Shown here: positions 618-10,838 of the stretch, piece after piece
Layout of the letters: every line of letters starts with the position of its first letter
Numbering within the stretch: position 1 is the first letter of the stretch
DNA from: a virus
Direction: 5' to 3' (one strand)
Length of the DNA: 10,838 bases
UHGV virus genome: UHGV-0114065
Notes under the pieces: generated by a model
Database searches by the model: none
What the model saw: the letters and a program-made list of their open reading frames with translations, nothing else
Told to the model about the DNA's origin: nothing
Made by a program: the position numbers and the translations under genes

Positions 618-1997
618 ATGGCTACGTGGCAACAGGGTATTAATTCTGGTGGGTTTCTTGCTGGCATCGGTGCGCAAAATGAGAATGCGCCAAAGGCAAG
701 CGACATTAATGCAACGCTTGGTCTGATCCGCGAAAACAATGAACTGGCTCGCTCAGGTGCAAATAACGTTGGCCTGACCGCGTTACGTGGTCTGGCTGGA
801 GTTGCTGATATTTACAATCAGGAACAGCAACAGAAAGCTATTAGTGCGTTCAATAAGGTTCACGCTGATGCATGGGCTTCTGGTGATCCATCTGGACTAT
901 TTAAGTTTGCCCAGGAAAATCCAGCGTTTGTTGCACAGGCACAACAGGCGTTTTCCGGTCTTAATGAGCAGCAACGCAACGATATGGGCGATTTAGCCAT
1001 GAGGGCTAACGTCGCTCTTTCCCAGGGACCGGAAGCCTACAGTAAATTCATTACTGACAACAAGGACAGGTTAAATCGCGTTGGTGCTAATGCTGACTGG
1101 ATGATTCAGACAGGTATCCAGAATCCAGAGCAGCTATCACACATGCTGACTACTATGTCTCTCGGTGCGCTTGGACCAGAAAAGGCGTTTGCTGTTCAGG
1201 ACAAGATGGCTGGTCGTGAAATTGACAGAGGCAGGCTGGCAGAGACAATCCGCAGCAATCAGGCTGGCGAGGCGCTAACAGCACGTGGTCAGAATATCAC
1301 GATGCGCGGTCAGGATTTATCGATGCAGAGAGCATCAATGAAAGGATCGGTTGGGAATAATGAGCGTACAGTTCAGTTAGCAGATGGCAGAACTGTAACG
1401 GTAGGCGGGAAGCTTCACGGCGCTGGGGCTAATGCGTTCTACGAAGGTATCGACAACGAGGGGAATATGGTTCGCGTCCCTGCTGGCTCTATTGCCGCTC
1501 CGGCTACATCGGCAGCAAGCGCGCAGAATTACGCAATGAAGAAAGATCTTGATGCAATTTCTGGTGCATCAATTGACGATCTTGGCTTCATGACTGGCAT
1601 TACAGGCTCTTCAGGTTCTCCTGCTCTTGGTGCAGATATTCGTAGCCGTGCATCTGGTGGTGATCAGAGGAAACTATACAACGCTGCACAGCGAATCCAA
1701 GGAAAGATGCAGAATCAGGGCATTGCAGCAGCCAGAGACATGGGGGCATCCGGTATCAACACCGTTGCAGAAGCAAAGATGTATTTTCAAGGTATGCCAC
1801 AGGTTGATTTCTCAAGCCCTGAAGCACTGCAACAATCAATGCGCGACATTCAGCAATATACCGACAATTACAACCAGCAATATAACGTTAATGTCGGTAA
1901 TGGAGGGAAGAAATCATCAATGCAACAGCCGCCTACTCAGCAATCAGCAGGAGGTAGCTACACGTCAAAATCAGGCATTCAATTTACGGTGGAATGA
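618..1997 (+). CDS. DNA-ejection (E) protein, P22 gp20-like
   Basis: 459-aa ORF with ATG at 618 preceded by AAGGGG RBS. Size and position between the gp7-like and gp16-like genes match the P22 7-20-16 block (from memory). Its stop overlaps the next start (ATGATGA at 1994-1999). Confidence 0.8.
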
Positions 1998-3835
1998 TGA
2001 AAGTAACTGCAAACGGTAAGACATTTACCTTCCCTGATGGTACGAGCACGGAAGATATTGGCACCGCCATTGATGAGTATTTTGCTGGTCAGGCTGTTCA
2101 GCAACAAACAGTTAATCAGGCCAATAATGAACCAGCACGTGAAGAACCATCATTGATGCAACAAGCTGGCGATTGGATCACTGGTGGTCAAAGTGCAGGG
2201 CAAATTGCAGAGCAGGCTGGTCGTGGTCTGGTAAACATACCATTTGACGTATTGCAGGGTGGCGCAAGTCTGATTAATGCAATCAGTCAGGGGCTTGGTG
2301 GGCCAAAAGTATTGGATGATGTTTATCGTCCAGTAGACAGACCGACAGACCCCTACGCACAAGCAGGTGAAACAATTGGTGGGTATTTAGTTCCAGGAGT
2401 TGGAACGGCAGGAAGCATGGCTATTGGATCACTGGCAGAGGCCGCAAATCAGAAAGGCGATTTCGCACAAAATGCAGCTAAAAATGCCGGAGTTAACCTT
2501 GCCGCTCAGGGTGTTCTTTCCGCAGCAGCAAAGGGAATAGGGCGTGGAATAACGGCTATAAAAGGTGATATTGCGCCAGAAGTGGCGAAGAAAATTGCCA
2601 CATCAGAATCGATGGGCGTGACACCAATGACATCTGATGTTATCCCGCCGAAAAATGCTTTCACTCGCGGCCTTACTCAGGATGCCGAGGGGGCTTTGCT
2701 CGGGACAGGCTCAAAGAGAGCGGAGCAATATGCAACGCGTAGTAAGCTGGTAAGCAATTATTTTGACCGTTTTGGTGAGTACAACCCTGATGATGTGGTG
2801 AAATCTCTGACCACCACGTTAAGGGGGCGGAAGGATGCCGCTGGCGCTGTTATCAATGACATCACCAATAAAATGGGTAATGCCGCAGTTGATACCACAA
2901 ATACCATGAATGCTCTGAATACAGCGATCGCAAGACAGGAACGACTTGGGACGTCTGCCAATCAAAGCCTGCTTACATCCTTGCGTAACCTACGTGAAGA
3001 ATTAGCAAACCCTGCAACTGATTTGGATGTTACGTTTGATCTCTTGCGTCAGCACAGAACGGCATTTAGATCTAATGTTCAGGGAGATGCTATGGTCTTC
3101 CCCAACCAGGCAAAAGCAGCTACCAATATGGTAGAGAATGCAATGTCAAAAGACCTTCGTAACGCAGTTGCAAAAAACCTCGGTGCATCAGACGCAGCAA
3201 AATACCTTAAAGCAAATTCTGATTATGCAAACGTTTATAATAAGGTGCTTAATAAAAACATTGCTAACAAACTCAACAAGGCAAGCAGTGAAGCCAGCCC
3301 TGAACTTATAAATACCGTTGTATTAAGCAGAAAACCATCTGACGTGAAACGAATATGGAGCGCACTGGATGATAAAGGGAAAGATGCTATGCGTGCAGCT
3401 TACGTCAGCAAAATAGCGGAAAAGGTCGGTGTCTCTCCAGCCAAGTTCATCACTGAAGTTAATAAGCTGAAATCTCAGTCAGGCGGTGAAATTTACAACA
3501 CTATTTTTTCTGGAAAGCACATGAAAGAGCTTGATGCTCTTCATGAAGTTCTACAGCAAACAGCAAGGTCAGACACCGCAAATGTAGTAACTCAGACGGG
3601 GCAATCACAAGCCAACAGGATAAGGACGATTGGCGCAACTGCGACTCTTGGCGTATCAATGGGGATTGAGGCTGGTTTTGGTGCAATGATGCGTTTGTAT
3701 GAGTCCAAAGCAGCAAGGAATGCGCTCTTACGTCTGGCAAACACTAAAGCTGGAACGCCAGCTTATGAAAGAGCGCTAAATCAGGCTGCTACTGCCGTGC
3801 GCCCGCTCTTAGCTAACGAAGCGACCCGGCAGTAG
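1994..3835 (+). CDS. DNA-ejection (E) protein, P22 gp16-like
   Basis: 613-aa ORF, translationally coupled to the upstream gene. Length is close to P22 gp16 (about 609 aa, from memory). It is the last gene of the late structural operon before the immI region. Confidence 0.8.
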
Positions 3836-3857
3836 CACTGTAAGCCAAGGACGGCAT

Positions 3858-4340
3858 TTATTTTATAGTTTTTATGAATTCTTTATTAAATCCCTTAGCT
3901 TCTCCGGGGTATCTTCCAAAGACAATTTTTATAAAAACAGAAAAAATAAAGATAGCAACGCTTAACAACAGTTGCAGTATCATTGGAACCCAAAGAACTA
4001 CAGGCTCTATATTCATGAAACCAAATATTCTTCCGGCGATCATGGCGAAGTACCACACTGTTATCAGCAAACTTAGTGGCATATGAATTACTGATATTAC
4101 CAATCCAAGAGCATCAGTAATTCTATTTTCAAATTTTTCAGGGGAAAACTTTTCTTTAAGGTAATTCAGTGCGCAGGTCTCATTCTCTGGATTTTCAGCA
4201 TTTTTCCCTATAGCAATAGAAATCTCAGATATCCTTGATTCAATTCTTTTGCGTTTAATAAAACTAGAAAAAAAGAACCACGCAATCTGCAACCCTATCC
4301 CCATAAATAGAGTTGCGGCAACTAGCACAGCGTAACTCAT
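3858..4340 (-). CDS. Small inner-membrane protein (about 160 aa, three predicted TM helices) at the position of P22 sieA; candidate superinfection-exclusion protein
   Basis: Minus-strand ORF. Start placed at the first ATG (complement of 4338-4340, [24 protein letters not shown]...) rather than the GTG at 4424 given by the ORF track. Three long hydrophobic stretches are visible by eye. The DNA is AT-rich. Gene order 16 > / < membrane gene / < unknown / < mnt mirrors P22 16-sieA-hkcC-mnt as recalled. Homology to SieA itself was not verified. Confidence 0.55.
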
Positions 4341-4569
4341 AGAATCAGACACACCAACCTCTTTAGTTTTTCTAGTTACTTTGTCACGATAGGATATGCG
4401 AATTGATAAAACTAAATTGCGCACATGATAACTCAGTAATAATTGTTAATGAAAACATGATCACCTATATTGCACAAGGCGAAACAGGAAGCATAATCTG
4501 GTTTCATGAGTGTGATCACGTTTGGGTAAATCAAAGTCAAGAGGAAATACTTGAAATTATCAAAAATAA

Positions 4570-5151
4570 CTATCTAAACGTTGCACACGACTCATCTATC
4601 CATTTTTCATAAAATTGTATACCGAGATAGGCAAGAACAGATGGATGTATATCAACAAGCTTTTCGCCAAGATGTTCTGTTGGAGGTGGATAATCTTTGC
4701 CTTGGTTTCTTACGGTTATAGGCATAGTTGTTGCTGGATGAAACTCAACTATCATAGGGTCGCCTTCGTATTTTGCTATTTTCCCTGTTGAATCAATGAT
4801 TAACTCTTTAATATAATGGCTTCTTGCTCCCGGAAATGCCCCAAGAGTAGTATAAGGAGGTTCAAGTTTTGAGATTTCCATAGTGGAATGATGATCAGCA
4901 TTTCTTGCTTGGTGAAGGTAAGCAAGTGTTTTGTCTGTTTTTCTAAGCATGAACTTTTGGTTGAAGTGGCTGCTAAATTTTCCACTAACCGGCTTTGTTG
5001 CACAGAGCAACTTACTGAAAGACTTTTCTATATGCCCAAGACATTCTCGCCAGTGCATTTCAAAATCATCATGGTTTGTAGATGATTTCATCTGCTCTAG
5101 GCACTTTTTAGCTGCGATGATTTCTTTTTTTGCTGGGTTGTAATCGATCAT
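4570..5151 (-). CDS. Hypothetical protein (193 aa), translationally coupled downstream of mnt; function unknown
   Basis: Minus-strand ORF whose ATG (complement of 5149-5151) overlaps the mnt stop codon (ATGA overlap at 5148-5151). No TM segments and no motif I can assign. AT-rich. Confidence 0.7.
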   Translation of the reverse strand: MIDYNPAKKEIIAAKKCLEQMKSSTNHDDFEMHWRECLGHIEKSFSKLLCATKPVSGKFSSHFNQKFMLRKTDKTLAYLHQARNADHHSTMEISKLEPPYTTLGAFPGARSHYIKELIIDSTGKIAKYEGDPMIVEFHPATTMPITVRNQGKDYPPPTEHLGEKLVDIHPSVLAYLGIQFYEKWIDESCATFR

Positions 5152-5402
5152 TTTGCATCCTTGCCATACATGTTTTTAAGTGTCTCAAATACCACAGACT
5201 TGAACTGTTCAGCCTGCATCTCGGCTAATCGTTCAGCTTCATTGCGATAACCTTTTACAGGAGATGGTCTCGATAGAGCATCTTGGACGATTTGCAACAA
5301 TTCTGAGTTCATTGATCTACCATTTGACTCTGCTCTGTATTTTAATTTTTCTCTTACTTCCAAAGGCATGCGGAAGTTAAAGTGCGGATCATCTCTAGCC
5401 AT
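5148..5402 (-). CDS. mnt: Mnt repressor (ribbon-helix-helix; maintenance of Pant repression in lysogens)
   Basis: 84-aa product MARDDPHFNFRMPLEVREKLKYRAESNGRSMNSELLQIVQDAL... closely matches the P22 Mnt N-terminal RHH domain as I recall it. It is divergent from arc across the operator region. GGAG lies 9 nt upstream of the ATG on the minus strand. Confidence 0.9.
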   Translation of the reverse strand: MARDDPHFNFRMPLEVREKLKYRAESNGRSMNSELLQIVQDALSRPSPVKGYRNEAERLAEMQAEQFKSVVFETLKNMYGKDAK

Positions 5403-5424
5403 GCCATCACTCCAAGTTAGTGTA

Positions 5425-5453
5425 TTGACATGATAGAAGCACTCTACTATATT
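5425..5453 (+). promoter_or_regulatory. Pant promoter (-35 TTGACA 5425-5430, 17-bp spacer, -10 TATATT 5448-5453)
   Basis: Consensus -35 and near-consensus -10 with the arc operator in the spacer, as in the P22 immI region. It drives arc-ant. Confidence 0.8.
5430..5450. promoter_or_regulatory. Arc operator (21 bp, ATGATAGAAGCACTCTACTAT)
   Basis: Exact match to the P22 Oarc sequence as recalled, with TAGA/TCTA half-sites. It lies between the -35 and -10 of both Pant and Pmnt. Confidence 0.8.
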
Positions 5454-5458
5454 CTCAA
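5430..5458 (-). promoter_or_regulatory. Pmnt promoter (minus strand: -35 TTGAGA at 5453-5458, 17-bp spacer, -10 TATCAT at 5430-5435)
   Basis: Divergent promoter overlapping Pant. The hexamers were read from the reverse complement. Arrangement is consistent with the known P22 Pant/Pmnt overlap. Confidence 0.6.
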
Positions 5459-5477
5459 TAGGTCCACCGTGGACCTA
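5459..5477. promoter_or_regulatory. Mnt operator (palindrome TAGGTCCACCGTGGACCTA)
   Basis: 19-bp near-perfect palindrome centred on one base, matching the P22 Omnt as recalled. It overlaps the predicted Pant transcription start. Confidence 0.8.
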
Positions 5478-5492
5478 TATTGTGAGGTGAAC

Positions 5493-5654
5493 ATGAAAGG
5501 AATGAGCAAAATGCCGCAGTTCAATTTGCGGTGGCCTAAAGAAGTATTGGATTTGGTACGCAAGGTGGCGGAAGAGAATGGTCGGTCTGTTAACTCTGAG
5601 ATTTATCAGAGAGTAATGGACAGCTTTAAGAAGGAAGGGCGTATTGGCGCGTAA
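5493..5654 (+). CDS. arc: Arc repressor (53 aa, ribbon-helix-helix)
   Basis: [53 protein letters not shown] differs from recalled P22 Arc at only two positions (R16K, E43D). GAGGTG RBS precedes the ATG at 5493. The longer ORF from 5430 in the track runs through the operators and is not the real start. Confidence 0.93.
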
Positions 5655-5722
5655 AGTTGAAGCCCCAACTGCGGGAACAGTCAGGGCTTCTGTTGTCAGT
5701 AAATTCGTGGAGAAAAACCAAC
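5654..5722 (-). ncRNA. sar: sar antisense RNA (about 69 nt) complementary to the arc-ant intercistronic region and ant RBS
   Basis: Extended -10 promoter on the minus strand (TGCTATACT, complement of 5729-5737) places a start near 5722, the complement of the ant ATG. The transcript would cover the ant RBS (5709-5717) and a 7-bp inverted repeat (5659-5665 / 5684-5690), ending near the arc stop. This matches the published P22 sar arrangement; the ends are inferred, not measured. Confidence 0.45.
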
Positions 5723-6625
5723 ATGAATAGTATAGCAATTTTAGAAGCAGTGAACACCTCTTACGTACCTTTCAATGGTCAGCAGATTATCACCGCCATG
5801 ACTGCCGGAGTTGCATATGTTGCGATGAAGCCAATCGTTGAAAACCTTGGAATGAGCTGGTCAACGCAGCAAACAAAACTCATGAAGCAGATTAGCAAAT
5901 TCAACTGTGTTCATATGAACATGGTTGCCGCTGATGGTAAGCTTCGTAAGCTACTCTGCCTTCCTTTGAAGAAGTTAAATGGATGGCTGTTCAGCATCAA
6001 CCCTGAGAAAGTTCGTGCTGACATCCGCGATAAACTGATTCAGTACCAGGAAGAATGCTTTACTGTGCTGCATGACTACTGGACGAAGGGAAAGGCAGAA
6101 AATGCACGTAAGAAAACATCTGTTGATGACAGGACTCCGCTTCGTGATGCTGTAAATATGCTAGTCAGCAAAAAGCATCTAATGTACCCAGAAGCTTATG
6201 CAATGATTCATCAGCGTTTCAACGTGGAAAGTATTGAAGAGCTTGATTCATCTCAGATACCGCAAGCAGTAGAGTACATCCACAGGGTAGTGCTTGAAGG
6301 CGAGTTCATCGGCAAACAAGAGAAGAAAACCAACGAGCTTTCTGCAAAAGAAGCAAACAGCCTTGTATGGCTATGGGATTATGCCAACCGCTCACAGGCA
6401 TTATTCCGCGAACTGTATCCGGCGCTGAAACAAATTCAATCGAACTATTCCGGCAGATGTCATGACTGCGGTTATGAGTTCTCCCGTATTATCGATATAG
6501 CGAGAGACGTTTTAATCAATCACACACGAGATGTTGATATTAATGAGCCAGACGGACCAACGAATCTTTCCGCATGGATGAGACTTAAGAATAAAGAATT
6601 ACCTCCTTCAGTACATAACTACTGA
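5723..6625 (+). CDS. ant: Antirepressor Ant (300 aa)
   Basis: Start placed at ATG 5723 ([21 protein letters not shown]...) with GGAGAAAAA RBS; the track ORF from 5657 is an upstream in-frame extension. Position after arc and length of 300 aa match P22 Ant. Confidence 0.88.
5729..5737 (-). promoter_or_regulatory. Psar extended -10 element (TGnTATACT on minus strand)
   Basis: Read from the reverse complement of 5729-5737, inside the first codons of ant. No good -35 is present, consistent with an extended -10 promoter. Confidence 0.45.
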
Positions 6626-6643
6626 CAGATAACCAACACGACA

Positions 6644-6667
6644 ACCCAGCTTCGGCTGGGTTTTTTT
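6644..6667 (+). terminator. Rho-independent terminator after ant (stem ACCCAGC / GCTGGGT, loop TTCG, then T7)
   Basis: Perfect 7-bp GC-rich stem with a TTCG tetraloop, immediately followed by TTTTTTT. Located 19 bp after the ant stop. Confidence 0.85.
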
Positions 6668-6725
6668 ATGCCCAAAATTCACCGTAGCCACGCTGCGGCG
6701 ATTCCTTGCATCTGGAGCAAATTAA

Positions 6726-8495
6726 ATGACAGACATTACAGCCAATGTGATCGTATCGATGCCTTCGCAACTCTTCACTATGGCGCGTTCTTTTAAAGCT
6801 GTTGCCAATGGCAAAATTTATATCGGAAAAATTGACACTGACCCGGTAAATCCTGAAAACCAGATTCAGGTTTATGTAGAGAACGAAGACGGCTCTCACG
6901 TTCCTGTTTCGCAACCAATCATCATTAACGCTGCTGGTTACCCGGTATATAACGGACAGATTGCCAAGTTCGTAACTGTGCAAGGCCATTCTATGGCTGT
7001 TTATGATGCGTACGGTGCGCAGCAGTTTTATTATCCGAACGTACTAAAATACGACCCGGATCAGTACAGTAAAATGGTCGGAGGCCTTACAACACCAGTA
7101 ACATGGCCTGGGTTTGCCGGAGGAGCAGATCCGACCGGAGTTAATTCATCTACAGCGGCTTTTCAAGCGTCATTGGATCAGATCGGCTACATTAACATGC
7201 CGCCAGGGGAGTACTTAATTGATGAAAGCTTAAACCTTGCAAAATCAGCTGTAATCTTTGGTGCTGGGAGATCGCTATCGAAGTTAAAATTCTCCGGGAA
7301 TTCTGCAACGCCTTTCGTTAAGGCTGCATTAGGGTACGCATCAACCGATTTAGTATATTTGCGTGATTTCACAGCCATTGCCACAGTTCCAAACTGCGGC
7401 CCTCTGGTTTCAATAAAAACAGATGCCGCCGCGCAATCTGCATCTCAGGTCGTTGTTGGTGATTTAGACAAACTAGTCATTAACAATGTTGATGCTTATG
7501 GTGATTCAAGCGGGAACTACTGGAATTGTGGCTTTGAAGCCATCGACTGCGGTGGTGTCCATATTCATAATTTCACAGTTAATAACAGGACTGTTTCGGC
7601 GCAAACTGACACATCGACATCTGGATTCAGGTTCAGAACTACGGCGCAAAAAGTAAGTGTAATACGCGCCCTGACAGCACAGGATTTCTACCTACTGAGA
7701 ATGTATTACGGCATCGACACGAAGCCGTTTAATAATCTCGGGGGCGGGATTACCAGTTATTATCTTTCCGACTTCGAAATCGTTGGCGTCAGGAATGGAA
7801 TAAGGGCTCAGAACTGGTGTGCGGCATGGCGAGTTACTGGGCATATCGATTCTACTGAGCAATGCCTAAACTTCCAGGGGGCGGGATTAACAAACGCACG
7901 GTTCACTGGCTGCGATTTCAGAAAAGGGAATAACGGCGGGCTAGGTTATGTTGCAGGACCAATGGTTACCCTGGACTACGGTGAGCAAATAACTTTCACG
8001 GGCGCGACGTTCTCCGGAATAAACCTCAATCTTGCTGACCCAAGCAATACTGCTTTTAGTTTTACCAATGCTTACAACGGCAACTGGGCATTTCTGATCA
8101 GTATTGACGGAAATACTTTTACTAAGTTTCACAACGTCATTGGGCAGACTAATAGCACCAATATTATTAGTATCGGCATTAATTCTTACAACCAGATTGC
8201 CGATGCAATAACCTTCGATTCAAATCTTGATCCAAGCTTTAGGCTTCAGACACCAATTCCAAGCATCAGCAAAGTTGTTGCCTTGCCAGTGGGAGATAGT
8301 ACATTTACCGTAAATGTTACCGCTAACCGTTTCAAAAATGCGCCTAACTATGCTGATGCTCGCCCGGTGAATAACCCAACTCAGAATGTCAGGGTTGTTT
8401 ATGATTATGCCGGATCTACAGCGAGCGCACTGCTTTTTAGGGTTTATGGAGTGGTGACCGCTGGGAACTTCCGATTTGGCATAATTACGGCATAA
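6726..8495 (+). CDS. Tailspike protein: P22 gp9-type N-terminal head-binding domain (about aa 1-115) fused to a divergent receptor-binding/enzymatic domain
   Basis: N-terminus [34 protein letters not shown]...VTVQGHSM...[11 protein letters not shown] matches the P22 tailspike head-binding domain from memory. Downstream of about nt 7070 the sequence is unrelated to the P22 endorhamnosidase domain. GGAG RBS at 6713-6716. Confidence 0.85.
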
Positions 8496-8513
8496 GCAAT
8501 ACAGGAGAAATAA

Positions 8514-8807
8514 ATGCGAGATATTTCACCACTGCTTCATGCTGTCACCGCTTTAGCTGTTCAGGCTGCTTTTGGCCTTTCCTCACGCGATTGGATAACT
8601 GGGGGTCTGCTGGGGAGTCTTTGGTTTATCGCTCGCGAGCACACCCAGGCTGAGTATCGCTGGATTGCCCAGTTCGGCGCAGGGAAGCGCGCCAACATGC
8701 CGTGGTGGGGCGGGTTCTCCTGGCGCGCATGGAACCTTCCCAGCATGCTCGACTGGATTGTGCCGGTGGCGACCTGCGCTGCCGTTTATTTTGCCTCCAC
8801 CCTTTAA
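8514..8807 (+). CDS. Hypothetical small membrane protein (97 aa), G+C-rich cargo gene immediately downstream of the tailspike
   Basis: ATG at 8514 with AGGAG RBS 6 nt upstream. Two or three hydrophobic/Trp-rich segments by eye. Composition is visibly more G+C-rich than flanking phage genes. It sits where P22-like phages carry O-antigen conversion genes (gtr or oac). Confidence 0.6.
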   Translation: MRDISPLLHAVTALAVQAAFGLSSRDWITGGLLGSLWFIAREHTQAEYRWIAQFGAGKRANMPWWGGFSWRAWNLPSMLDWIVPVATCAAVYFASTL

Positions 8808-8863
8808 CTCCTGTCGAGCTCATTGATAGGCGCCGACACATTGATCTGCACCTCCTTTAAAAC

Positions 8864-8883
8864 TACTGTATATAAAAACAGTA
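8864..8883. promoter_or_regulatory. LexA (SOS) box TACTGTATATAAAAACAGTA
   Basis: CTGT-N8-ACAG with 18 of 20 positions matching the E. coli consensus TACTGTATATATATACAGTA. It ends 1 nt before the AAGGAG RBS (8885-8890) of the downstream gene. Confidence 0.7.
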
Positions 8884-8898
8884 AAAGGAGTGCAGGTC

Positions 8899-9138
8899 AT
8901 GCCACGCCGTTCCGACATTCACGCCGCATTTGTGGCCGCAATACAGCTAAACCCCAAGGGCTACCGGTGCTTACGCACAGAAGACTTTATCCGCGAACTG
9001 GCAAAGGTCCACTGGCATTTCAGCCGGGCCGACGCCAACGAGTGGATAGAGCGCTATCAGCCCGACTTCACCGACAAGACAACTGACGGAACCGACAATC
9101 ACTACTGGATCCTGCGCAATATGGGGAGGGTTCACTGA
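8899..9138 (+). CDS. Hypothetical small protein (79 aa), first gene of the SOS-box-controlled cassette
   Basis: ATG at 8899 with AAGGAG 8 nt upstream; the ORF track starts it at a GTG at 8890 inside the RBS. Its stop overlaps the next gene's start (TGATG at 9136-9140). No recognisable family. Confidence 0.6.
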   Translation: MPRRSDIHAAFVAAIQLNPKGYRCLRTEDFIRELAKVHWHFSRADANEWIERYQPDFTDKTTDGTDNHYWILRNMGRVH

Positions 9139-9455
9139 TGGGCTTTCCTTCACCGGCGGGCGACTACGTAGAGCAGCGGTTAACACCGGAGCGTATCTGC
9201 GGGATCGGCATGGACAGCCGCATCCTCGAAACATCATCCGGCTTTGCCGTTATCGAACCGTGCACCAGGCTGGTACAGAATCAGGTTCTGCTGATTTTAT
9301 CTGGCGGCAGAACGCAGTTTGCCAGGGTAATGGGTAGGGCATTAATCACTGATGATGGTGAAGCGATCGAAGGGGAGGAGGCGGAGGAAGTTGAGGTGCT
9401 GGGGCGCGTGACGTTCTTCATCAACAGCGCGCTACAGGATGACAGGGTGGTTTGA
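9138..9455 (+). CDS. UmuD'-like protein (degenerate S24/LexA-type peptidase fold, starts at the position of the UmuD cleavage site; catalytic Ser/Lys not evident)
   Basis: N-terminus MGFPSPAGDYVEQRL matches UmuD residues 25-38 (GFPSPAADYVEQRI), the first residues of processed UmuD'. The C-terminal pattern EVEVLGRVTFFINSA resembles the last beta-strands of UmuD/LexA. GGGGAGGG RBS 7 nt upstream. I could not find the conserved Ser-Met and Thr-Val-Lys motifs. Confidence 0.65.
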   Translation: MGFPSPAGDYVEQRLTPERICGIGMDSRILETSSGFAVIEPCTRLVQNQVLLILSGGRTQFARVMGRALITDDGEAIEGEEAEEVEVLGRVTFFINSALQDDRVV

Positions 9456-9465
9456 TTGGGTGGCA

Positions 9466-10623
9466 TTACGCCACCTTTTCATCAAGCCAGTCCGCCCACC
9501 ACTGCATCATTTCTCTGCGCTTATCGAGATACTGAGCATGGTTGTAAATCCCGCGCACAGATCCGCCGTTGGCATGTGCCAGTTGCACTTCAATAGCGTC
9601 GGCAGGCCATTCGTGCTCGTTCATAATCGTGCTGAATTCATGCCTGAATCCGTGACCGCTTTCCAGACCTTCATAGCCGATTTGTTTGATCACAAGCAAT
9701 ACCGCGTTCTCGCAGATTGGCTTTTTCTTATCATTGCGCCCGGCAAAAACAAACTCTGATACTGGTTTGGTGATTGAGCTTAGCGTAGTGAGAAGTTCAA
9801 CCACCTGGTCCGACATCGGGACCACATGAATTTTGCGTCCCTTCATCACACTGGCGTCGATGGTGATAATCCTGTTTTCAAAATCGACGTTCTTCCATTG
9901 CATGGAACGAAGCTCTTTCGTTCTTAGGGCTGTGTAGCGTAAAACTTTGGTCGCAATGAGCGATACGATACTTCCTGAAAATGTTGCCAGTGCTTTGTTG
10001 AATGCCGGGATCTGGTCTGCAGGAAGAAACGGGAAGTTCTTCTTGCGGTATCCCTTCATGGCGTCAGCAAGGTCAGGTGCCGGGTTATATTTAGCCCTAC
10101 CAGTGACAATAGCGTAACGGAAAACCTCGCCGCATCTTCTGCGGGCTTTGTTGGCTCGCTCCATTGCACCGCGATCTTCAAATCTGCGGATTACTTCCAG
10201 CAGTTGCATCGGCTCAATATCCTGAATTTCAAGGCCGCCGATGATAGGTAAAATGTCGTCATCAAACATTTTTGCAAGTTCAGTTGCATAGCCTACTGAC
10301 CAGACTTGCTTCTTGTGCTCGTACCATTCCTTGTAAATGGCGCTAAAGGAATTGTTGTTAGACGAAGCCTTTTTCGCCTTTACCGGATCGATGCCAACCG
10401 AGATGTCTTTCCTCGCAGTCCATGCTTTATCCCTTGCCTCTTGCAAAGTCATAAGCGGGTATTTTCCGACGGTCAGGATTTTCTCCTTACCGTCAATCTT
10501 GTAGCGAAGCTGCCATACCTTTTTCCCTGACACAGGGACATAAAGGTACAGGCCATTACCATCGAGAAGGCGGTATGGTTTTTCTTTCGGCTTTGCTGCT
10601 TCAATCTGCTTAACGGTGAGCAT
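9466..10623 (-). CDS. int: Tyrosine integrase, P4/IntS family (385 aa from ATG at 10623; alternative GTG start at 10659)
   Basis: N-terminus MLTVKQIEAAKPKEKPYRLLDGNGLYLYV is typical of P4-family integrases. Catalytic residues are visible (R in LRTKELR, HGFRH, Y in GIYNHAQY). It reads away from the adjacent tRNA 3' end, as expected for tRNA-targeting P4-type integrases. Confidence 0.9.
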   Translation of the reverse strand: MLTVKQIEAAKPKEKPYRLLDGNGLYLYVPVSGKKVWQLRYKIDGKEKILTVGKYPLMTLQEARDKAWTARKDISVGIDPVKAKKASSNNNSFSAIYKEWYEHKKQVWSVGYATELAKMFDDDILPIIGGLEIQDIEPMQLLEVIRRFEDRGAMERANKARRRCGEVFRYAIVTGRAKYNPAPDLADAMKGYRKKNFPFLPADQIPAFNKALATFSGSIVSLIATKVLRYTALRTKELRSMQWKNVDFENRIITIDASVMKGRKIHVVPMSDQVVELLTTLSSITKPVSEFVFAGRNDKKKPICENAVLLVIKQIGYEGLESGHGFRHEFSTIMNEHEWPADAIEVQLAHANGGSVRGIYNHAQYLDKRREMMQWWADWLDEKVA

Positions 10624-10668
10624 GGGTAAAAATCCGGTGGGTAAAATTATTTTATCCACTTTTTACCC
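10624..10668. repeat. Three copies of a 9-bp motif GGGTAAAA(A/T) in the integrase leader (10624-10632, 10639-10647, and inverted at 10660-10668)
   Basis: Read directly from the sequence. Two direct copies and one inverted copy lie within 45 bp immediately 5' of the int ATG. Candidate integrase arm-type or regulator sites. Confidence 0.4.
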
Positions 10669-10785
10669 GTCATGGAGTGCGGCTGTCAACGATCTGACGC
10701 GAACCATTACGAACTGTGAATCTACGGAAGTCTTGGTATTCAGGGGATTTTGCGGACTGGTACGGATGGGAGCGAACTGATAAAT

Positions 10786-10838
10786 GGTGTCCCCTGCAGG
10801 AATCGAACCTGCAATTAGCCCTTAGGAGGGGCTCGTTA
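10786..10838 (-). tRNA. argW: tRNA-Arg (anticodon CCU), 3' portion only; 5' part lies beyond the window end. Probable prophage attL core
   Basis: Reverse complement of 10786-10838 reads TAACGAGCCCCTCCTAAGGGCTAATTGCAGGTTCGATTCCTGCAGGGGACACCA. This gives an anticodon arm AGCCC-CUCCUAA-GGGCU (anticodon CCU), a T-arm with GGTTCGATTCC, and a 3' CCA. It matches enterobacterial argW from memory. Confidence 0.9.

Follow-up and report, generated by a model that had tools for sequence, protein, structure and literature searches.

Candidate defence genes are common in prophages, and the described defence and exclusion morons of temperate phages include P22 SieA, SieB, HK97 gp15 and BstA. Among RNases of the HEPN type, represented here by HepT/DUF86 (5yep and 7ae2), AbiV, AbiD/F, AbiJ, AbiU2, RnlA/LsoA and PrrC/RloC, the usual position of an insert is between helices 2 and 3. 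In the HEPN superfamily, an Rx4-6H motif is situated where helix 3 ends or where its connector to helix 4 begins; the residue next to the arginine is mostly N, D or H, and in Csx1 a beta-hairpin is inserted directly after this motif (PMC3710099). A neighbourhood of restriction-modification (R-M), HEPN and Fic/Doc genes has been described for HEPN proteins of the PrrC/RloC type. In phage P22, the slot 3′ of mnt and 5′ of sieA is occupied by orf59a; since the P22 annotation places the mnt terminator downstream of orf59a, this slot belongs to the mnt transcription unit.

In this study, a stretch of 10,838 nt (hereafter the window) was analysed, which represents the late-operon end of a P22-like Escherichia coli prophage. 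Positions 4400–5420 were 100% identical to the chromosome of E. coli MB53 and to others. Genes on the plus strand were arranged in the order ejection-protein genes (618–3835), arc, ant (5493–6625) and tailspike gene (6726–8495), and three genes on the minus strand, sieA, ORF 4570–5151 and mnt, were situated between the ejection genes and arc/ant. The features of this region are as follows.

3858–4352, minus strand: sieA (superinfection exclusion), the next gene downstream of the ORF; GTG start at 4352, 164 aa, 92.6% nucleotide identity to P22 sieA.
4371–5220, no strand: mosaic module of 850 bp without P22 similarity (blastn of the window against P22), 37.4% GC.
4570–5151, minus strand: the 193-aa gene, from the ORF list; its product is identical to RefSeq WP_000568382.1, named 'hypothetical protein'.
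5148–5151, minus strand: ATGA shared by the TGA stop of mnt and the ATG start of the ORF, read directly from the sequence.
5148–5402, minus strand: mnt, first gene of the operon, encoding an 84-aa ribbon-helix-helix (RHH) repressor of Pant (Pfam Arc, 2.8e-27; Repressor_Mnt, 3.4e-11).
5158–5162, minus strand: AAGGA Shine-Dalgarno sequence of the ORF, lying within the final mnt codons, 6 nt 5′ of the ATG (direct reading).
5425–5453, plus strand: Pant, divergent from and overlapping Pmnt; coordinates agree with the annotation of P22 (BK000583).
5430–5458, minus strand: Pmnt, TTGAGA-17-TATCAT, from a promoter scan; it coincides with the Pmnt annotated in P22 (BK000583).
About 5454–5476: palindromic mnt operator (Omnt), flanking Pmnt; coordinates agree with the annotation of P22 (BK000583).

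The preliminary description had placed the 193-aa gene in the mnt operon, with a start codon overlapping the mnt stop, and direct reading bore this out. The mnt stop codon (TGA, 5150–5148) and the start codon of the ORF (ATG, 5151–5149) together form ATGA, the minus-strand junction being GGCAAGGATGCAAAATGATCGAT, and the ORF has its own AAGGA site. No intrinsic terminator was found between the two genes. The 5′ two-thirds of mnt were approximately 91% identical to P22 mnt in blastn, with P22 homology running from 5221 upward, and the Pmnt/Pant/operator region was likewise conserved at approximately 91% identity to P22. As judged from these signals, the operon logic of mnt and the ORF is solid. 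No terminator was evident 3′ of the ORF, the 228-nt stretch made up of the sieA spacer and the last 11 nt of the ORF having a fold not better than that of shuffles (z −0.74). Nor was a structured RNA detected in this spacer, an Rfam scan of 3700–6800 returning sar alone. The sar antisense RNA (RF00262, 91 bits) lies on the minus strand at 5655–5722, just 3′ of the arc stop and across the ant start.

Two further observations concern the sieA side of the gene. RefSeq gives a longer sieA, of 188 aa with a GTG start at 4424; this form is probably an over-extension, because GTG 4352 is where both the homology to P22 and the alignment to the PHROG profile start (residues 25–188 of the long form align to positions 1–164 of the SieA-like phrog_7745). 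A ribosome-binding site, AAAGAGG, precedes GTG 4352. The spacer between sieA and the 193-aa gene is filled by a 69-aa ORF on the plus strand (4403–4612), which is unannotated and overlaps both at its ends. It is probably spurious, and its single family match, in PADLOC, was at chance level (E 0.026).

Comparison with P22 revealed that homology breaks off at 4370, a short way upstream of sieA, and begins again within mnt at 5221, approximately 24 codons from its end. The module between these points comprises ORF 4570–5151, the terminal ~24 codons of mnt and the spacer that precedes sieA, and it therefore replaces the part of P22 in which the mnt 3′ end, orf59a, the mnt terminator and PsieA are located; since homology ends at 4370, the PsieA region of P22 is not conserved in the window. 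The ORF has a GC content of 38.7% (GC3 31%), compared with 46.4% for the window and 47.9% (GC3 51%) for the neighbouring ejection genes. A tblastn search with the 193-aa protein gave no match among 50,697 phage records, P22 and HK620 included, and thus the gene is absent from the cultured phage records searched. Homology to P22 orf59a, considered as a candidate, was rejected on the basis of this search and of the break in DNA homology over 4371–5220. By sequence comparison, then, the ORF is a positional analogue of orf59a and not its homologue: it takes the same slot in the mnt transcription unit, as had been proposed, whereas orf59a encodes 59 aa instead of 193 and begins 99 bp past mnt, without overlap.

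The gene was found in approximately 21 of 5,426 complete E. coli genomes. In about 156 other E. coli genomes, whose mnt is 80–90% identical to that of the window, the slot appears in most to hold a gene for a 178-aa ClpP-like protein, an occupancy inferred from the feature names in the four matches listed and from one inspected locus. At that locus (L060, 3466–4002, E. coli SMN013SH2), the gene, annotated as 'ClpP-like proteolytic subunit', overlaps the mnt stop by 1 nt, and it had no PADLOC match. The position behind mnt thus looks like an exchangeable cargo site of P22-like prophages, carrying the 193-aa gene, a ClpP-like gene or orf59a depending on the phage, and with such varied contents it is a convenient place to seek further lysogen-expressed functions. 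The mosaic module, its low GC content and the ClpP-like occupant agree with the earlier suggestion of AT-rich, horizontally acquired cargo. In being AT-rich cargo of a variable temperate-phage slot, predicted to be expressed in the lysogen, the gene resembles the defence and exclusion morons P22 SieA, SieB, HK97 gp15 and BstA, which are also often transcribed against the late operon. It differs from them in having no sequence relationship to any, and its product is not a membrane protein like SieA or gp15; as previously stated, the protein is soluble (GRAVY −0.52, without a hydrophobic segment).

In searches for related proteins, an exhaustive profile search at E ≤ 1e-3 retrieved 1,772 representatives (50% identity), 1,296 of them with E ≤ 1e-10; a word-indexed search for the same family retrieved seven clusters only. 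Nearly all representatives were 170–205 aa long (typically ~190 aa) and aligned end to end, the full-length homologues being 25–62% identical to the 193-aa protein. Domain fusions in the longer members were uninformative. The source names were 'hypothetical protein' throughout, and almost none of the members had a Pfam match. The 193-aa protein itself corresponds to phrog_23516 (7e-120, full length), to which no function is assigned in PHROGs. It gave no match in Pfam or NCBIfam, and no catalogued defence family matched it in PADLOC-DB v2.0.0 (0 families at E up to 1). By these searches the gene falls in no curated family, and a literature search for the accession or the gene description found no paper.

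ORF 4570–5151 is a genuine gene and not a chance reading frame, because it has full-length homologues in ~1,770 clusters and a very confident structure prediction. Its presence in so few E. coli genomes would suit a decaying or neutral passenger of a variable region, a functionless hitch-hiker. We regard this as very improbable, given that the length and the invariant residues are conserved over those clusters, that the fold is predicted so confidently, that unrelated strains and 15 IMG/VR contigs have intact copies of 98–100% identity, and that coupling to an upstream gene is kept even with a 62%-identical homologue (L011, see below).

Conservation was analysed, and the structure modelled, with an alignment of 150 diverse members of 21–60% identity. 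The resulting features of the protein, given as positions of the window, were:

4888–4905, minus strand: R83-N-A-D-H-H88, invariant Rx4H motif and putative HEPN-type catalytic dyad (R83 and H88 in 150 of 150 members).
4666–4686, minus strand: P156-P-T-E-H160-L-G162, second conserved motif, from the translation (P157 in 146 and H160 in 140 of 148).
4645–4887, minus strand: beta-rich insert, residues 89–169, including the PPxxHLG loop; AlphaFold2 model, with strands between residues 94 and 154.

Only W34, R83 and H88 were invariant. Residue 84 was N in 78, D in 39, H in 18 and G in 14 of the 150 members, so that N, D or H was present in 135. Alignment columns conserved in at least 90% of the members were R70, D73, L75, L76, Y78, A82, P157 and H160, and the consensus of the family core reads RKxDPLLxYLxQARNADxH, followed later by PPxxHLG. 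In helix 2, residue 42 was E in 87, N in 21 and D in 15 of 150, and K47 was present in 121, with the spacing Ex4K and not Ex3K. The AlphaFold2 model built with this alignment had a pLDDT of 96.7 and a pTM of 0.89. Its helices (5–23, 27–51, 60–88 with a kink at 73, and 170–192) form an up-down four-helix bundle, with R83-x4-H88 at the C-terminal end of helix 3 and the beta domain beginning at residue 89.

The protein had been described as carrying no assignable motif, a statement that is not upheld because it carries the HEPN-type Rx4H signature; of the remote homology and structure searches suggested at that time, none matched a known family, while the signature and the four-helix model did emerge. 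A four-helix up-down bundle of about 100–120 core residues is seen in the predicted model, in which helix 3 terminates with the conserved Rx4-6H sequence, the arginine being followed by the polar N, D or H. Like the HEPN RNases listed above, members of the family are small and cytoplasmic, and they are found in prophages as well as, together with a Fic gene, in a type I R-M operon. The acidic residue E42 of helix 2, conserved to a moderate degree (58%), may correspond to the second acidic residue of HEPN proteins, which often has the form Ex3[KR]. Several properties set the family apart from those RNases. Its large insert lies between helices 3 and 4, as opposed to 2 and 3, and forms a beta domain of 80 residues right after the motif, where only Csx1 has a small beta-hairpin; there is an extra PPxxHLG loop and a cluster of R70, D73 and Y78; and a cognate partner of the MNT nucleotidyltransferase, RnlB-like antitoxin or ABC ATPase kind is absent. 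Moreover, neither sequence nor profile comparison linked the family to a curated HEPN family. An hmmscan of the 150 members against Pfam found no HEPN family, and consensus sequences (with the insert deleted and others) had no Pfam match even at E values up to 10. Profiles that included or lacked the insert were likewise without a match among PDB sequences, and hhalign against E. coli RnlA was negative. Foldseek against PDB returned nothing significant, the beta insert included, and unrelated helical bundles scored equally well.

We read the 193-aa protein as a divergent HEPN-like domain with a large family-specific insertion. This reading depends on the motif at its position, which discriminates, and not on the fold alone, which does not since unrelated bundles score equally. 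The residues R70, D73, Y78 and H160, outside the HEPN signature, could form a metal or ligand site or indicate a different chemistry. A different account is that the protein is an accessory without nuclease activity, in which the helical bundle serves as a scaffold, the ligand of the beta domain is a small molecule or a protein of the host or phage, and the HEPN resemblance is convergent; examples would be a factor for lysogenic conversion or regulation, an anti-defence protein, or an enzyme that depends on a metal and uses H88, H160, D73 or D86. We consider this account possible, although rather doubtful: the only invariant polar residues are the R-x4-H pair, with N, D or H next to the arginine, at the structural position that defines HEPN, and the contexts of the gene (prophage morons and an R-M/Fic operon) are typical of HEPN and Abi genes.

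Homologues were located in several genomic contexts, in line with the earlier proposal of a prophage-defence type of setting, since they occupy typical moron or defence positions. In IMG/VR, 15 near-identical copies were all in P22-like contigs, and 16 distant copies (27–41% identity) were in contigs mostly about 35–57 kb in length. Most of the distant copies stood by themselves in opposite orientation, flanked by a 485-aa late gene and the lysis cassette, or adjoining terminase or lysis genes. Lysis cassettes were adjoined by homologues at loci L038–L050 and L049, and in a Pseudomonas fluorescens prophage (L015) the homologue adjoins a DUF2514 gene and a gene for a glycoside hydrolase of family 19 (endolysin-type). 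Other positions were the tail region of a siphophage (L008), the end of a prophage beside the tailspike gene (L002), a site beside long unannotated late-strand genes of 778 and 825 aa (L058), and a site after a YgjP-like metallopeptidase gene (L021). In a Rhodoferax MAG (L014, 1404–7756), the homologue is part of a type I R-M operon with the order Fic, HsdS, a 148-aa gene, the homologue and HsdR, the Fic gene being PDC-S04/SoFic-like in PADLOC. By its gene content, this is a multi-layer defence-island arrangement that reproduces the neighbourhood of R-M, HEPN and Fic/Doc genes. Apart from this Fic gene, the neighbours of the homologues gave no PADLOC matches. No conserved partner gene was found, the upstream neighbours being mutually unrelated in nine genomic loci, as expected for a self-contained effector.

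Two loci retain the ATGA overlap with an upstream RHH gene. In one (L011, 1328–2157), a Mnt-like RHH gene of 23% identity is followed by a 62%-identical homologue without arc/ant, next to a UmuC-like fragment and a gene for a 210-aa membrane protein, which suggests that an RHH gene and a gene of the 193-aa type can travel as a unit. In the other, from E. coli (L012), the overlap involves a second Mnt variant. With the window, three different RHH genes are thus fused to the gene by ATGA, and Mnt weakly matches FitA-like and RelB-like antitoxins. The classical type II toxin-antitoxin (TA) layout consists of an RHH gene followed by the toxin gene, with overlapping codons. On these grounds the pair might be an addiction module in which Mnt, or a Mnt-like protein, is antitoxin and autorepressor and the HEPN-like protein is the toxin, so that the prophage is stabilised and incoming phages are not sensed. 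We consider such a module unlikely. The conserved adjacent antitoxin gene by which a type II TA system is recognised was not found: an RHH gene stands directly upstream in three context types only (the window, L012 and L011), other upstream neighbours, where they exist, are unrelated to one another, and most of the homologues examined stand alone, a small gene on the same strand being absent from their 5′ side (L002, L008, L058, L038–L053 and the genomic loci). In a Raoultella siphophage/prophage, with the order ant-arc/mnt, two other genes separate mnt from the homologue. Mnt also has a well-established separate job as the repressor of Pant, and the ClpP-like gene that appears to stand behind mnt in about 156 E. 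coli genomes points to a general cargo site.

For the HEPN-like protein, a defence role is plausible. We propose that the gene encodes a HEPN-like RNase, self-contained and made in the lysogen, which serves abortive infection or defence and is held inactive until infection, plausibly by the beta domain; we give this proposal about an even chance of being correct. The gene would be cargo in the 'ant moron' of a P22-like prophage, and a low constitutive level of its product would be expected in the lysogen, because the gene would be co-transcribed from Pmnt and translationally coupled to mnt. The product would be a cytoplasmic, stand-alone four-helix bundle of the HEPN-like type in which R83-x4-H88 forms a metal-independent RNase site, and the beta domain of ~80 residues inserted directly after the motif is a possible lid or sensor. 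The enzyme would be kept inactive and be switched on by a superinfecting phage; once active, it would cleave RNA (mRNA, tRNA or rRNA), and phage growth would stop. It is a prediction in each case that the protein is an RNase, that the insert regulates it, that the lysogen expresses it and that it confers a defence phenotype. A solitary, constitutively expressed RNase would need some mechanism of regulation, and the one put forward here is a guess. If the proposal is true, a fold, a catalytic motif and a role open to testing would become available for ~1,800 clusters of 'hypothetical' proteins, a compact one-gene system invisible to Pfam, NCBIfam and PADLOC would join the known prophage defence genes, and a beta domain at the active-site loop would represent a new way to regulate a HEPN nuclease.

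A possible link to lambda Ea47 was also noticed. Weak precomputed matches to PF26900 (Phage_lambda_Ea47) were present in 2 of about 200 members (P0288 and P0304), and residues 65–85 of lambda Ea47 (KNDPLMAWAKNSRN; L063, 1687–2919) are in register with the RKxDPLLxYLxQARN block of the family. This similarity, over a block of 21 residues, is below significance (hhalign probability 3%, hmmsearch p about 0.01), and the Ea47 copies in the phage collection are identical lambda copies only. Both are non-essential accessory genes of temperate coliphages, whereas Ea47 is 410 aa long, has K at the position of the invariant H88 and leaves the beta insert unmatched. More speculatively, the family may form a new and widespread HEPN clade of immune effectors against phages, each made of one protein and perhaps distant kin of the lambda b-region protein Ea47, in which the beta domain, inserted at the active-site loop, is a sensor gating the RNase; such genes would be swappable cargo of temperate phages of Proteobacteria, hard-wired here to Mnt for co-expression of immunity and defence. 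We offer this wider picture tentatively, as something that may well prove wrong.

Downstream of the tailspike gene, the window ends in a GC-rich block (8500–10838, 55–59% GC). It contains an ORF of 97 aa (8514–8807), an overlapping pair of ORFs (8890–9138 and 9138–9455), the second with a UmuD-like N-terminus ('GFPSPAGDY'), and an IntS-type integrase gene on the minus strand (9466–10659), whose E. coli matches border tRNA-Arg. At least 80% of the region 8400–10838 was matched by only 8 complete E. coli genomes, with 92–96% identity in the six listed; the junction therefore differs from that of the MB53 prophage.
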